A stretch of DNA of 5,700 nucleotides, taken from the IMG/VR virus record IMGVR_UViG_2645727680_000010, one strand, 5' to 3'. Of the stretch, positions 709-4,289 are shown one piece after another. The position numbers and the translations under genes were made by a program. The stretch's first letter is position 1. Each line of letters starts with the position of its first letter. The notes beneath the pieces were generated by a model. The model worked only from the letters and a program-made list of their open reading frames with translations. It ran no database searches and was not told the origin of the DNA. This DNA is from a virus. Taxonomy: Duplodnaviria > Heunggongvirae > Uroviricota > Caudoviricetes.

Positions 709-1443
709 TCATTGCCCGGACTTCCGACAAATCCCGGCAACCATATCCCGGTGCTTGTTCAGCTCCCGCAGCGCGGCGCAGACTCGCTCCCACTTCTGAA
801 CATGATTCTTCGCCCTACGCAGTTCGCGATTTGCCATATGCAGCGATGGCAAAATCAAATCATCTTCTCGCGTTGCAGTAAACGATGGCAGCGACTGCAC
901 AATGTCCGCCACAGTTTCTGTTTTAATATCTTCCTGTGTTGCATCTTTCTGTACCGGTAACGCAACACCGGCTGGCTGAGGAAAGGCTTTACCATCGGTT
1001 TCCGCTACCGATTCAACTTTCGGCTCTGCTGGTAAATTATCACCTGGTATGCAGTAACGAATTTTACCGTTCTGGTTTACGCGAATCAGACGACCTTTGC
1101 TGATTGCCATTGCCAGCGTTGAAGCAACTTTGCGGGATGTTGTACCGAACAGCGTAGCCAGTTCATCCGCCGTTTGTGGTCCGCGTTGTTCAATCGTCGC
1201 GGTTAAATCGCACTCTGAGATTTTCGCTTCTGTTGCCGTGGTGGTTTCTTCTGGCGCTGGCTGTTCCTGCTGAACGTTGTTATCAGCCACACGCCAGGTG
1301 TATACGCTTTTATCAACGAAGCCAGCCTTTTTCAGTTCCCACAGCTCGTTCAGTACTTCTTCACGACTGATATCAAGGCGCGCAGCCAGCTCTACCGACG
1401 TGGCTTTTCCCATCGCTTTCAGTGCGTCAAAAACAGTCTCCAT
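709..1443 (-). CDS. Prophage protein with two winged-helix-like segments (DUF1627-like by recollection), function unknown
   Basis: 244-aa ORF with ATG at 1441-1443 and GGAGG 6 nt upstream on the - strand. N-terminal segment [28 protein letters not shown] and a second segment [29 protein letters not shown] look like winged-helix folds, separated by an acidic/Thr-rich linker. Stop TGA at 709-711. Confidence 0.7.
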
Positions 1444-1476: not shown

Positions 1477-1875
1477 TCAAACAAAACCAGCCGCTTTCCG
1501 GCGTTCATATTCCTGTTTCAGCAACTCAATTGGCGTTGGCCCCGACGGGCGTTTGGGGGCCGCCAGTTGTCGCCGGACTGGCGGAACGCTCAGGCCGTTA
1601 CTAACATGCTTTGCCCATTTCGTCAGTTGCCGTTCTGCAAGCCGTTTTAATTCCCCTTCGGTCATCTGGCGCTCAATCCCCTTTGAACGCATCTCGAGGC
1701 AAATGTGATACAGCACAGGCTGAGACCACGGGTACTTATCACTTCCGTCGTATCGCCAGGACTCATTGCGCCAGCGGCGGTACTCCTCCATCACAGCATC
1801 CACCGTCAGACCGAATGGATTGGCTCCGCTTTTCGAAATCAGTGCCACAAACTCAGCCANNNNNNNNNNATGCAC
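1477..1875 (-). CDS. Hypothetical early-operon protein; 5' end unresolved because of the N-run
   Basis: Open frame ending at TGA 1477-1479. The upstream part runs into the 10-N gap at 1860-1869. Candidate starts are GTG at 1873-1875 or ATG at 1789-1791 (GGTGGA about 9 nt upstream). No Walker motif or other recognisable domain, so it is not a DnaC/DnaB-type helicase loader. Confidence 0.5.
   Translation of the reverse strand: MHXXXXAEFVALISKSGANPFGLTVDAVMEEYRRWRNESWRYDGSDKYPWSQPVLYHICLEMRSKGIERQMTEGELKRLAERQLTKWAKHVSNGLSVPPVRRQLAAPKRPSGPTPIELLKQEYERRKAAGFV
1860..1869. other. Run of 10 ambiguous bases (N): assembly gap or masked bases inside coding sequence
   Basis: Directly visible. Ten N is not a multiple of three, so the true length and frame across the gap are unknown. 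Confidence 0.99.
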
Positions 1876-1902: not shown

Positions 1903-2943
1903 TCAGTCATCGCGCCAATCTGTGCAATCCAGAGCTTCGAAGGTGCGGCCCCGTTCTTCTGGGTCCAGCGGTTCGAATAAACCACCCCCATGAGTTCCCA
2001 CAGCTTCCAGGCCGTTTCCGTCGCTGATAAATCCGTTTTCACGTTCCCACTGCTCACGTGCTGCCCGAATTTCCTGAACTGCCCGTGATGCGGTGCCACC
2101 TGGTGCTGCTGCATGGTTTACCCCTTTGCTGACTGGTTTAACCTGCGCCCTGACGTGATTTACGTGACGGGCGAATTTCTGCTCCCACTGAATCTGCGTA
2201 AACACTTTCCCCTCCGCTGCCCAGTAGTCCCGGAAGGCGGCAAGTTCAGCAGGTGTAAATTCTGTCTCCGGCAAAGCCATCCCCCACAACGCAGCCCGTC
2301 GTCGAAAATCCCGTGACGGATACCAGCTATCGCTCATCGGGAATTTTCCGATGGGTTCGCTCAGGCCATACAGGAATACAGGGGGGGCTGCCTGTAACGA
2401 CAAAACTTCCTGCTCACTGGTCGGAGCACTCTCGCGTGCGTTATGTGTGGGGTTTAGATCTTTGGGTTCCTTTGGGTTCCGTGATCCGTTTTTGGGTGTC
2501 TTTGATGGAAAATTTGGGTGTCTTTGGTTATTTTCCATGCAGCTAAGAGTTCTGTTTTTGGGTCTGTTTTGTGCTGAAACATAACCATTTTCGGTACTGT
2601 TTTTATTAACAGCACCAATTTTACCCACCTTTAAAGACTCCCGTTTTTGGGTGTATTCAGGCTCGGCAACACTTTCTTCTACACCGATAAGTCGGTACAC
2701 CACAATTTGCTTTGTTCTGCCTTTTCTCTCACCGGTATCAACAATTAACCCAATCTCCATCAGGTGTCGTAAGCTGTCCTGCACAGTCTTTTTGTTCAGT
2801 TCCGTTACTTCTGCCAGTGCAGATACAGACGGGTATGCACACAAATCGGCACCGCACATATCAGCAAGCCAGGTCAATACTGACTTACTGGATGAACTGC
2901 CGGTTTTCACCTTTTTAGCCCATCGTAGTGCATCGATACTCAT
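1903..2943 (-). CDS. Phage replication initiation protein (N-terminal winged-helix DNA-binding domain, low-complexity linker, C-terminal DnaT-like domain); lambda O-like role
   Basis: First ATG of the frame is at 2941-2943 with AGGGG 5 nt upstream; the longer 3018 start is a TTG and overlaps the upstream gene by about 100 bp. N-terminus MSIDALRWAKKV...LAEVTELNKKTVQDSLRHLMEIGLI is typical of phage replication-protein HTH domains. The Pro/Lys/Asn-rich linker is encoded by the iteron array. C-terminal region resembles DnaT-type domains (recollection). Stop TGA at 1903-1905. Confidence 0.75.
   Translation of the reverse strand: MSIDALRWAKKVKTGSSSSKSVLTWLADMCGADLCAYPSVSALAEVTELNKKTVQDSLRHLMEIGLIVDTGERKGRTKQIVVYRLIGVEESVAEPEYTQKRESLKVGKIGAVNKNSTENGYVSAQNRPKNRTLSCMENNQRHPNFPSKTPKNGSRNPKEPKDLNPTHNARESAPTSEQEVLSLQAAPPVFLYGLSEPIGKFPMSDSWYPSRDFRRRAALWGMALPETEFTPAELAAFRDYWAAEGKVFTQIQWEQKFARHVNHVRAQVKPVSKGVNHAAAPGGTASRAVQEIRAAREQWERENGFISDGNGLEAVGTHGGGLFEPLDPEERGRTFEALDCTDWRDD
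2461..2652. repeat. Iteron-like direct repeats (6 x TTTGGGT, same orientation) plus adjacent AT-rich stretch; putative phage replication origin inside the initiator gene
   Basis: TTTGGGT at 2461, 2471, 2491, 2513, 2557 and 2646. Extended copies: TTTGGGTTCC x2 in tandem, TTTGGGTGTCTTTG x2, TTTGGGTCTG. Region 2571-2640 is about 36% G+C by hand count against about 55% around it. Same layout as ori-lambda inside gene O. Confidence 0.55.
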
Positions 2944-3466
2944 ACGAACCCCTGGCAGACATTTGTTTATCTGCAAAGTAATATTGGTATTGCTGACGAT
3001 ACGCGTGCTTGAAAGCAATAGCTTTTTCTATAAGCTCGTCAGTCTCACGTTCCACAACAACTGGATCCGCAAAAAGCAGCCCGGACTCCACCACATCGCC
3101 ATATTCTTTGTTTAACCCGGCGATCATGTACGTAATGCTTTTTCCGTCAGTAATTTCACAATACAATCTGAAATCGCTGATCCGGATAGCCTCCATAATT
3201 GCCGGAATCAGCGCCGTGAATTTGTCACGCTTATCTCTGGTGTCGATAGCTTTCCAGCGTTCGAATATCTTCACCCGGTTAACGCCCAGCGCCCGTTGAT
3301 CAACCTCGCCATCATTAAACGTGACGCGTTGAACATCGATGTTCGGGCGTTCTTTCAGAGCCCAGAATGCTTCCGTGATTAATATCGTCGCCTGCTCCTG
3401 TGTCATTCCTGGTCGGCATACCCAGGTATCCAGAGCCTCACAAACCTGTTCAGTGGTGATTTTCAT
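2915..3466 (-). CDS. CII-like / YdaT-family early regulatory protein (putative)
   Basis: 183-aa ORF with ATG at 3464-3466 overlapping the 3' end of the Cro-like gene by 17 bp, which suggests translational coupling. Its position right after cro is where lambdoid phages carry cII or YdaT-type genes. Family assignment rests on position and size, not on a recognised motif. Stop TAA at 2915-2917. Confidence 0.55.
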   Translation of the reverse strand: MKITTEQVCEALDTWVCRPGMTQEQATILITEAFWALKERPNIDVQRVTFNDGEVDQRALGVNRVKIFERWKAIDTRDKRDKFTALIPAIMEAIRISDFRLYCEITDGKSITYMIAGLNKEYGDVVESGLLFADPVVVERETDELIEKAIAFKHAYRQQYQYYFADKQMSARGSYEYRCTTMG

Positions 3467-3677
3467 TGTTCAACCGCCCCGCCCGCTTTGCCTTACGATA
3501 TTCGTCATAAACTTTGGGGTCGTACTGAAGTTCCCCGCCGGATGCCTCTTGCAGGCGCATCGCGCGACCTTCAGGAACCAGTTCCCCCCATGCAGCAACG
3601 CTTGCCAGCCTAACTCCTGCGACATTGGCAAGCTTTGTTTTGCTGCCAAAAAACGCTATAGCATCAATTTTCAACAT
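3450..3677 (-). CDS. dicC: Cro-like transcriptional regulator (DicC / YdaS family)
   Basis: 75-aa ORF with ATG at 3675-3677 and AAGGGG 6 nt upstream. Divergent from an XRE repressor. Size and sequence character (…GSKTKLANVAGVRLASV…LVPEGRAMRLQEASGGELQYDPKVYDEY…) match my recollection of DicC of the Qin prophage and YdaS-type proteins. Confidence 0.7.
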   Translation of the reverse strand: MLKIDAIAFFGSKTKLANVAGVRLASVAAWGELVPEGRAMRLQEASGGELQYDPKVYDEYRKAKRAGRLNNENHH

Positions 3678-3753
3678 ATCGAACCCCTTAGATTTTCCTA
3701 AGGAAACTAGATCGTAGAGAAACCTAAGTCAAGAAAAATTAGAATTACCTAAT
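3678..3753. promoter_or_regulatory. Divergent promoter/operator region of the repressor / Cro-like switch
   Basis: 76-bp intergenic region between divergent start codons. 18-bp palindrome CCTTAG-ATTTTC-CTAAGG at 3686-3703 overlaps the RBS of the Cro-like gene. TTGACT (-35-like) on the - strand at 3727-3732. TAGAAT (-10-like) on the + strand at 3740-3745, only 8 nt before the repressor ATG, implying a leaderless or near-leaderless repressor mRNA. Confidence 0.6.
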
Positions 3754-4161
3754 ATGAAAAACGAAACCTTCGGTGCTCGCCTCTTATACAGGCGAAAAAA
3801 ATTAAAACTGTCTCAGGCCGCATTAGGTAAGCTGGTCAAAGTGGCTCACGTAACAATTTCTCAATGGGAAAGAGATGAAACACAGCCAGCGGGGAAGAGA
3901 TTATTCGCACTGAGCCAGGCGCTTCAGTGCTCGCCGACTTGGCTTCTTTTTGGAGATGAAGATAAGCAACCAGGCGAACCGATCCCAGATAATCAGCCAG
4001 TCAATCTGACAGAAGATCAAAAAGAGTTGCTTCAACTGTTCGACGCACTGCCTGAGTCAGAGCAAAAGGCTCTGTTGTCAGAGATGCGTGCTCGAGTTGA
4101 GAATTTCAACAAACTTTTTGAAGAACTACTCAAAGCTCGCAAAAGAAGCGCAAATAAATAA
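3754..4161 (+). CDS. dicA: XRE-family phage repressor, DicA-like (CI-equivalent)
   Basis: 135-aa ORF with ATG start. N-terminal XRE helix-turn-helix (LSQAALGKLVKVAHVTISQWERDETQP) and a C-terminal helical region. Size, divergent partner and sequence match my recollection of DicA of E. coli Qin prophage. Stop TAA at 4159-4161. Confidence 0.8.
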   Translation: MKNETFGARLLYRRKKLKLSQAALGKLVKVAHVTISQWERDETQPAGKRLFALSQALQCSPTWLLFGDEDKQPGEPIPDNQPVNLTEDQKELLQLFDALPESEQKALLSEMRARVENFNKLFEELLKARKRSANK

Positions 4162-4259
4162 CCCCCCTTTTTTTCGCAACTCTCTGTAATAAAAAGCACA
4201 AACTTTCAAATACTTGTGTTTTTTACATCAAGAAGCTTAGGTTTTTCTACACAAAAAGC

Positions 4260-4289
4260 TTGACCATAACTCTTAGGCTATTCTAAATT
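4260..4289 (+). promoter_or_regulatory. Candidate sigma70 promoter for the downstream small-gene cassette
   Basis: TTGACC at 4260-4265 (5/6 to TTGACA), 18-nt spacer, TAAATT at 4284-4289 (4/6 to TATAAT), about 80 bp upstream of the first cassette ORF. Confidence 0.35.

Follow-up and report, generated by a model that had tools for sequence, protein, structure and literature searches.

A putative iteron-type replication origin within the linker-coding segment of a prophage initiator gene

Whether a cluster of short repeats inside the coding sequence of a replication initiator serves the encoded protein or the DNA itself is the question raised by a 5,700-nucleotide stretch of the Caudoviricetes record IMGVR_UViG_2645727680_000010 (denoted here as the window, meaning the whole stretch analysed). 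The window is a Rac-like/lambdoid Escherichia coli prophage region with 99.8% identity to PPompW, the ompW-integrated lambdoid prophage of Shiga-toxigenic E. coli, and the repeats lie in a gene whose product is annotated as 'phage replication protein' in LC567818 and matches PHROG 1032 ('replication initiation protein') with an E-value of 9e-91. With a probability of roughly 0.78, the array is the putative iteron part of the prophage replication origin, located inside the linker-coding segment of the initiator as in ori-lambda. The initiator was modelled with AlphaFold2 (AF2), the model being read by the predicted local distance difference test (pLDDT), and is organised as follows:

1903-2943, minus strand: open reading frame of the replication initiator, 346 amino acids, consisting of a winged helix, a disordered linker and a DnaT-like C-terminal domain
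2674-2943, minus strand: N-terminal winged helix, residues 1-90, AF2 pLDDT about 90
2362-2673, minus strand: segment coding for the disordered linker, residues 91-194, which hosts the repeats; pLDDT 36-44 throughout
2143-2343, minus strand: DnaT-like single-stranded-DNA (ssDNA)-binding domain, residues about 201-267 (folded about 200-270), PF17948 E 9e-17

The heptamer TTTGGGT starts at 2461, 2471, 2491, 2513, 2557 and 2646, always on the plus strand, and both strands of the 5.7-kb window are otherwise free of it. In 200 dinucleotide shuffles it averages 0.97 copies; the highest count is 4, and none reaches six. A preliminary description, made from the letters alone, had reported six non-random copies of one orientation within 2461-2652, four of them close together, and is borne out on both counts, the four lying within 59 bp. 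Its extended copies are likewise real, TTTGGGTTCC being a pair (Tandem Repeats Finder (TRF) period 10, 2.1 copies, 2460-2480) and TTTGGGTGTCTTTG occurring twice, at 2491-2504 and 2513-2526. Its placement of the array in the part encoding the linker between the N- and C-terminal domains agrees with the AF2-disordered residues 91-194. In the coding-strand form, ACCCAAA, the six copies occupy all three codon phases (0, 2, 1, 2, 1, 2), which gave the first indication that more than peptide repetition is involved.

The true repeat unit, however, is not the heptamer, as had been supposed, but an iteron of about 20 nt present in four copies. A family matrix was derived from 95 linker sites aligned from 47 non-window genes, the window itself being left out. 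The resulting consensus is AAYAGTMCCRAAAACGGNAC, in which position -10 is an A in 93 of the 95 sites and GTnCC...GGnAC dyad arms surround an RAAAAC A-tract. On both strands of the window the matrix detects exactly four sites, all on the minus strand and all in the flagged array; the next best score in the window is 1.4 bits and the maximum over 200 shuffles 12.6. Three of the six heptamers thus turn out to be the cores of iterons 1, 3 and 4, while one belongs to an iteron-like half-site and two to a different repeat. The heptamer list was also incomplete, since iteron 2 with its TTTTCGGT had been overlooked. The elements of the array are:

2638-2657, minus strand: iteron 1, AATACACCCAAAAACGGGAG, read E-Y-T-Q-K-R-E; 24.6 bits, top score in the window; TTTGGGT at 2646-2652
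2582-2601, minus strand: iteron 2, AACAGTACCGAAAATGGTTA (ACCGAAAATGG), read N-S-T-E-N-G-Y; 14.8 bits, weaker, one core mismatch
2549-2568, minus strand: iteron 3, AACAGACCCAAAAACAGAAC, read N-R-P-K-N-R-T; 23.3 bits; TTTGGGT at 2557-2563
2505-2524, minus strand: iteron-like half-site, AAGACACCCAAATTTTCCAT; below matrix detection; TTTGGGT at 2513-2519
2483-2502, minus strand: iteron 4, AAGACACCCAAAAACGGATC, read K-T-P-K-N-G-S; 21.7 bits; TTTGGGT at 2491-2497
2461-2480, minus strand: tandem GGAACCCAAA x2, TRF period 10; TTTGGGT at 2461-2467 and 2471-2477

The four iterons are located at codons 96-154, right after the winged helix, with start-to-start spacings of 56, 33 and 66 nt, which are roughly multiples of 11. 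The position of iteron 1 is kept in Kluyvera, Scandinavium, Edwardsiella and Plesiomonas, iteron 2 aligns with ACCGAAAACGG in relatives, and the core CCCAAAAACGG of iteron 4 is invariant in an alignment of five species. Iteron 3 is polymorphic at gene nt 390, where the window carries the minority CAG allele and 33 of 44 related haplotypes carry CGG; the CGG allele of NZ_CP148379.1 scores 30.9 bits. The left arm of the half-site is that of iteron 4, with 13 nt in common (AAAGACACCCAAA), its right arm being replaced, and Kluyvera and Scandinavium possess an inverted CCGTTTTT copy at the aligned position. One arm (2505-2513) of a perfect 9-nt inverted repeat, ATGGAAAAT / ATTTTCCAT, also falls within the half-site, with the heptamer of 2513-2519 at its inner edge; the other arm is at 2530-2538, 16 nt away.

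The tandem that closes the array aligns with CGGAATCTACCAAAGGAACCTAAAG in relatives and is the window's degenerate version of a second family-wide repeat, GAAYCTA. In the family, GAAYCTA(YCA) is present in 2-3 copies at 12-13-nt spacing directly after the last iteron (for example L016:1870-1910 and L116:1940-1990). It is read in two frames, as Q/R/K-N-L (NL[SP]) and as E-S/E-P, and its Leu is the rare codon CTA in 36 of 55 cases, compared with a background of 9%. This second repeat may function in unwinding or as an additional binding site, and the perfect 10-mer tandem, which lies at the mosaic junction described below, may owe its exact form to slippage.

Conservation of the repeats at the DNA level beyond coding constraint had been proposed as the check to be made in homologues, and synonymous variation destroying the motif as the outcome that would speak against an origin. 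Homologues of the N-domain were taken from 22 loci (one genome per species), 160 viral contigs and phage and plasmid records, and were reduced to 48 non-redundant genes; the comparison as a whole extends over about 130 homologous loci. A first scan of viral contigs yielded only E. coli copies of 98-100% identity, and polymorphism among such near-identical copies has no power to separate iteron from non-iteron positions. In the locus search, an alignment of 14 sequences contained no stretch conserved enough and one of 5 sequences was used. In every homologue the winged helix is followed at once by a linker that varies and is rich in repeats, irrespective of the C-terminal domain, and the unit of about 20 nt occurs immediately after the winged helix in 2-7 copies. 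Among the 48 homologues, AAAACGG is clustered in most at gene nt 255-540, with a density there of 7.1 per kb versus 0.16 per kb in the rest of the approximately 3.4-kb loci, its copies are distributed over the frames as 63/23/11, and inverted CCGTTTT copies are 12-fold enriched in the same interval. Depending on the frame, CC(A/G)AAAACGG encodes x-Q-K-R, P/T/S-K-N-G or x-E-N-G, or P-K-T-G/E, and its inverted copy P-F-F.

The opposite of motif decay is seen, namely a motif kept in three frames and frozen at synonymous sites. The Lys of KNG motifs is AAA in 46 of 46 cases (background 62%), and the preceding residue varies between P, T and S with a codon that ends in CC in 44 of 46. Pro is CCC in 25/26 (background 11%, binomial p about 3e-23), the Arg of QKR is CGG in 19/20 (background 15%, p about 4e-15), the Thr of PKT is ACG in 11/13 (background 19%), and Glu in the linker motifs is GAA in 25/25. 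As a control, the invariant residues of the folded N-domain employ all synonymous codons (R73, for instance, is CGC 12, AGA 8, CGT 7, CGA 7 and CGG 4 times), from which it follows that synonymous sites are saturated at such divergence and that the linker motif is therefore held by selection on the nucleic acid. Within the five-species alignment the orthologous last iteron changes frame: the same DNA encodes T-P-K-N-G-S in the window but D-P-Q-K-R-D in Edwardsiella and Plesiomonas.

Unit and position are kept across Enterobacterales, Neptuniibacter, Sulfuricella, Methylobacter and Acinetobacter, with N-domain identities down to 35-45%. In phiV10 and EPP-1, isolated temperate phages outside the training set, the matrix finds 6-7 and 5 sites, respectively, in the same place; a Klebsiella relative has 5 sites, and lambda, Rac-SA53 and pPE4 have none. 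At the level of aligned sequence, the repeats are thereby shown to be maintained as DNA across a wide family of phage initiators, independent of the reading frame.

The repeats also vary together with the protein domain that precedes them. Homologues without K52-T53 in helix 3 lack canonical iterons and carry other direct repeats in the same place, in 2-3 frames: CnCCCCCGAA x7, GT(A/C)GGGAAAA x6-8 and CCACCAGTGCCAA x4. One example of such a differing repeat is the GTAGGGAAAA type. The association of K52-T53 with the canonical iteron is 38:4 against 0:6 (Fisher 1.7e-5, phylogeny ignored). Among these homologues the repeat type is shown to change with what appears to be the recognition helix of the winged-helix domain, which is what co-evolution of a DNA-binding domain and its sites predicts, and the homologues with alternative repeats could act as natural specificity variants. 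The CnCCCCCGAA x7 array, at 17/22-nt spacing, is from a Desulfovibrionaceae genome, and a Methylococcaceae metagenome-assembled genome has ACCGGTAGGGAAAA x8. Multi-frame alternative arrays are found in the distant homologues L018, L019, L022 and L023, at gene nt about 270-420 counted from position 1501.

The downstream edge of the array coincides with a break in homology:

2459-2463, no strand: mosaic junction, at which 'N-domain + repeats' end and the DnaT-like module starts

The nucleotide identity of about 90% to ydaU of Rac-SA53 ends at window position 2463 and that to phage pPE4 at 2459. The N-domains of both are unrelated to that of the window, and only residues from about 164 onwards align with Rac YdaU. 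One close E. coli haplotype diverges wholly from gene nt 484 on, at the same break point. Since shared homology and haplotype both break at the array edge, N-domain and repeats are shown to form one recombination module, joined at about 2460 to the DnaT-like C-terminal module. One and the same DnaT-like C-terminal module is thus seen fused to three unrelated N-domains, in the window prophage, in Rac-SA53 (DUF1376-type YdaU) and in pPE4, the record of which is labelled Actinobacillus phage. In pPE4 an in-frame 12-bp tandem, CCTAAGGATAAG, lies by the junction and is ambiguous between peptide and DNA selection, while in Rac-SA53 a search for equivalent repeats gave nothing clear.

In the AF2 model the winged helix comprises helices 3-11, 17-29, 40-47 and 51-64 and a beta hairpin 67-85. 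With Foldseek the N-domain matches winged helix-turn-helix (wHTH) regulators and Rep proteins, i.e. generic winged-helix proteins only, and it is the presumed reader of the iterons. HTH_36 is assigned in homologues and remains sub-threshold in the window initiator (20.9 versus a cut-off of 25). The initiator has no match to Pfam Phage_rep_O (PF04492), but the O-like PHROG profiles 678 and 345 match its N-domain and also the N-terminus of lambda O. Nor is there a match to Rep_3, and the AF2 model holds a single wHTH. The C-terminal domain superposes on crystal structures of the DnaT ssDNA-binding domain (6aeq and 4ou6) in Foldseek with E 6e-6, 54-59% identity and a TM(target) of 0.87-0.91. For the NCBIfam DnaT equivalog NF002770 the score is 93.4 bits where 201 is required, with the match confined to the C-terminal domain.

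Among the closest known arrangements is ori-lambda, which the preliminary description had invoked as a model. As in lambda, the putative origin sits midway along the initiator gene, in the linker-coding part directly after the N-terminal DNA-binding domain; the lambda record has four annotated iterons at O codons of about 116-145, in frames 0, 2, 2 and 1, and both sets of iterons span several frames. The units are alike in length (about 19-20 bp), in their dyad arms, which are C-rich and G-rich in lambda, and in a C-AAAAC-G (CAAAACG) centre (TCCCTCAAAACGAGGGA and variants in lambda, ACACCCAAAAACGGGAG in the window). N-domain and iterons are swapped as a specificity module in lambdoid O genes as well, and a gene for a P-type helicase loader follows immediately downstream:

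1477-1875, minus strand: lambda-P-like helicase-loader gene, PF06992 E 9e-15; PHROG 109 'P-like helicase loader' E 4e-43

This gene lies directly downstream of the initiator gene, and the same pair is found in phage phiV10. Lambda O binds its iterons to form the O-some, whereupon an adjacent AT-rich tract unwinds, and six iterons are present in Stx phages (PMC7466680), which include 933W and P27. The differences from lambda are that the N-domain of the window falls outside Phage_rep_O and is linked to lambda O via PHROG profiles only, that the C-terminal domain is DnaT-like instead of being that of lambda O, that the array is closed by the second short repeat GAAYCTA (GGAACCCAAA x2), and that no distinct AT-rich tract follows the last iteron. 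Of the ori-lambda layout, the intragenic repeats after a DNA-binding domain and the P-like neighbour are retained, whereas the AT-rich tract behind the last iteron is not.

Taken as an origin, the array would have its four iterons occupied by the winged helix at the N-terminus of the 1903-2943 product. Occupancy would probably be by dimers, given the dyad arms around the A-tract of the unit. Binding would build an O-some-like nucleoprotein complex on phased A-tracts, which would bend and destabilise nearby DNA. The DnaT-like ssDNA-binding domain and the neighbouring P-like protein would then recruit the host DnaB. A circumstantial hint of autonomy is NZ_CP148379.1, an E. coli sequence of 8,461 bp that was submitted as a circular plasmid. 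Next to cI-like, cro-like and YdaT-like genes, the initiator with all four iterons and the P-like gene, its listing has five more genes, among them hokD, rem and an HNH endonuclease. The listing names no replication gene beyond these and no replicon type, and by analogy the record could be a lambda-dv-like mini-replicon.

GC content drops to 36-43% in the linker-coding segment, in which one interval stands out:

2581-2639, no strand: moderately AT-rich stretch (70% AT) between iterons 1 and 3, candidate unwinding region

The AT-rich stretch had been described as flanking the array; it lies inside the array and contains one iteron. It is only moderately AT-rich and not exceptional for the window (70% AT in 40-nt windows, where the whole window averages 52% and reaches 72.5% at the 99th percentile), and it is not conserved as a spacer, relatives holding further iterons in the same interval.

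Several points weigh against an origin. A search of the window and of the GC profile of the family for a conserved AT-rich unwinding element gave none that was convincing, and no clear one follows the last iteron, in contrast to lambda. The DNA downstream of 2483 has about 55% GC, and the family profile shows a shallow dip of 5-7 points only. Iterons 2 and 3 of the window each have one core mismatch, the matrix core was chosen by selecting on AAAACGG, and the codon and covariation statistics ignore phylogeny. Direct similarity of the initiator to lambda O is not significant (no BLASTP match; hhalign probability 2%), so that homology rests on the shared PHROG profiles. NZ_CP148379.1 may be an assembly artefact, and no binding or origin-mapping experiments on this initiator family were found in the searchable literature.

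Four other explanations have to be weighed. The disordered linker and the recurrence of short peptides such as PKNG in homologues would suit a by-product of a low-complexity, Pro/Lys/Asn-rich protein linker, with selection, or its absence, acting on the peptide. The same DNA word nevertheless yields QKR, PKNG/ENG, PKT and, when inverted, PFF; synonymous positions are fixed far above background where invariant residues of the folded domain use all codons; the residue before the motif is P, T or S with a codon ending in CC; and orthologous sites survive a change of frame. Frame and codon data exclude a purely peptide-level origin of the repeats, and this explanation retains hardly any credit. 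Scarcely better placed is neutral slippage or recent duplication at a recombination hotspot, here the mosaic junction: it would account for the perfect tandem 10-mer of 2461-2480 right at that junction and for perfect tandem arrays in some homologues, but not for copies that are dispersed with variable spacers instead of forming simple tandems, nor for a 20-nt unit kept in position across distant hosts while the N-domain falls to 35-45% identity. By this conservation neutral slippage is excluded for the repeats. An element acting in the mRNA, be it a slippery or pausing sequence or an RNA structure, is brought to mind by canonical copies that all lie on the coding strand and by the resemblance of CCCAAAA to slippery heptamers. 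Direct orientation, though, is normal for iterons, as in lambda, and the motif covaries with a DNA-binding helix. Since copies occur in all three frames, incompatible with a frameshift signal, and inverted copies are enriched at the same place, the frameshift or RNA reading is rejected as very unlikely.

The fourth explanation accepts the repeats as protein-bound DNA sites and places the true origin elsewhere, the sites serving autoregulation of the replication operon, copy-number control by handcuffing, or as a partition or packaging signal. Conservation and covariation with the winged helix point to a protein-DNA site without telling what it does, the array has no strong AT-rich unwinding element next to it, and in iteron plasmids the same sites perform both initiation and control. 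The position, on the other hand, matches ori-lambda exactly, the protein family is annotated and syntenically placed as an initiator with a P-like loader, N-domain and repeats travel together with varied C-domains, and NZ_CP148379.1 is a small replicon-like record without another candidate. A non-initiation role is thus rather unlikely, yet bound sites that serve control rather than initiation form a serious residual alternative, the two roles not being mutually exclusive in iteron systems.

Besides ori-lambda, three systems resemble parts of this locus. The Rac module (ydaU/ydaV, oriJ) shares the dicA/racR-like, dicC/ydaS-like and ydaT-like context and a C-terminal DnaT-like module with about 90% nucleotide identity, whereas Rac YdaU has an unrelated N-terminal domain (DUF1376-type) and none of the window's iterons. 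An active origin, oriJ, has been reported for Rac (PMC3945230), and oriJ plasmids are referred to as existing (reference 62 in PMC11014345); on the mapping of oriJ, nothing specific was found in the literature. In iteron plasmids of the Rep_3 type (R6K, pSC101, RK2, F, P1) multiple direct repeats are bound by a winged-helix initiator, as would by analogy be the case in the window. Their iterons, however, lie outside the rep gene, whereas those of the window are intragenic, they are usually accompanied by DnaA boxes and a defined AT-rich DNA unwinding element, and their initiators have two winged-helix domains. Host DnaT, finally, has a C-terminal ssDNA-binding domain close in structure and sequence, but its N-terminal half is absent from the window protein, in which the domain is fused to a putative origin-binding winged helix.

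The window carries an early control and replication block in the order cI-like, cro-like, cII/YdaT-like, initiator and P-like. The genes besides the initiator and the P-like gene are:

3754-4161, plus strand: cI/DicA-like repressor gene
3450-3677, minus strand: Cro/DicC-like gene
2915-3466, minus strand: cII/YdaT-like gene
709-1443, minus strand: DUF1627 gene

A 29-nt overlap (2915-2943) between the cII/YdaT-like gene and the start of the initiator gene suggests translational coupling of the two. At the other end of the initiator gene, a run of 10 N at 1860-1869, just past the stop codon, masks the expected 5' part of the P-like gene, which in related records overlaps the initiator stop by 8 nt (layout from NZ_CP148379.1). 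Two copies of the hexamer CCTAAG/CTTAGG lie between cro and cI (3697-3728) and two more downstream of the cI-like gene (4236-4285), the latter inside a 14-nt direct repeat, CTTAGGnTnTTCTA. Along with a near-tandem repeat of 23 nt (4218-4261), they are candidates for the operators of the immunity region. Just past the cI-like gene, a likely intrinsic terminator occupies 4190-4225, made up of an inverted repeat of 12 nt (TAAAAAGCACAA / TTGTGTTTTTTA) with a T-run behind it.

The replication module is common, being present at at least 95% identity in 908 of 5,426 complete E. coli genomes, including prophages of Shiga-toxigenic O157, O145 and O111 strains. The sole annotation of the initiator gene in those genomes is 'DnaT-like ssDNA-binding domain-containing protein', none of the records examined carries an annotated origin, and nothing specific on iterons or an origin for DnaT-like/HTH_36 phage initiators was found in the literature. 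The array supplies a candidate origin for this module, and with it a recognition rule for a large family of phage initiators, namely multi-frame direct repeats directly after the winged helix. Such a rule is usable for automatic origin annotation and for predicting the replication specificity and incompatibility of co-resident prophages. The linker segment is also a clean case of a coding sequence dictated by overlapping, predicted DNA-binding sites. The lambda paradigm is extended by these results and not changed, the principle being the classical lambda one, and it is the family-wide rule and the second repeat that are most worth following up.

More tentatively, and with somewhat less than an even chance of being right, the family may represent a very widespread, as yet unannotated class of phage origins, in which the conserved 20-nt AAYAGTMCCRAAAACGGNAC iteron and a terminal GAAYCTA repeat are embedded in the disordered linkers of HTH_36-type initiators whose hosts range from Enterobacterales to Acinetobacter, Methylococcales and Betaproteobacteria. 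If so, the recurrent linker peptides QKRN, PKNGT, ENGT, PKTE and NLSVEP would be translation by-products of DNA sites, and the second repeat could be an origin element of a new sort, serving either in unwinding or as an additional binding site. The common C-AAAAC-G centre and dyad arms would then mean that these initiators and their iterons go back to one co-evolved ancestral initiator-iteron pair shared with lambda O and ori-lambda.

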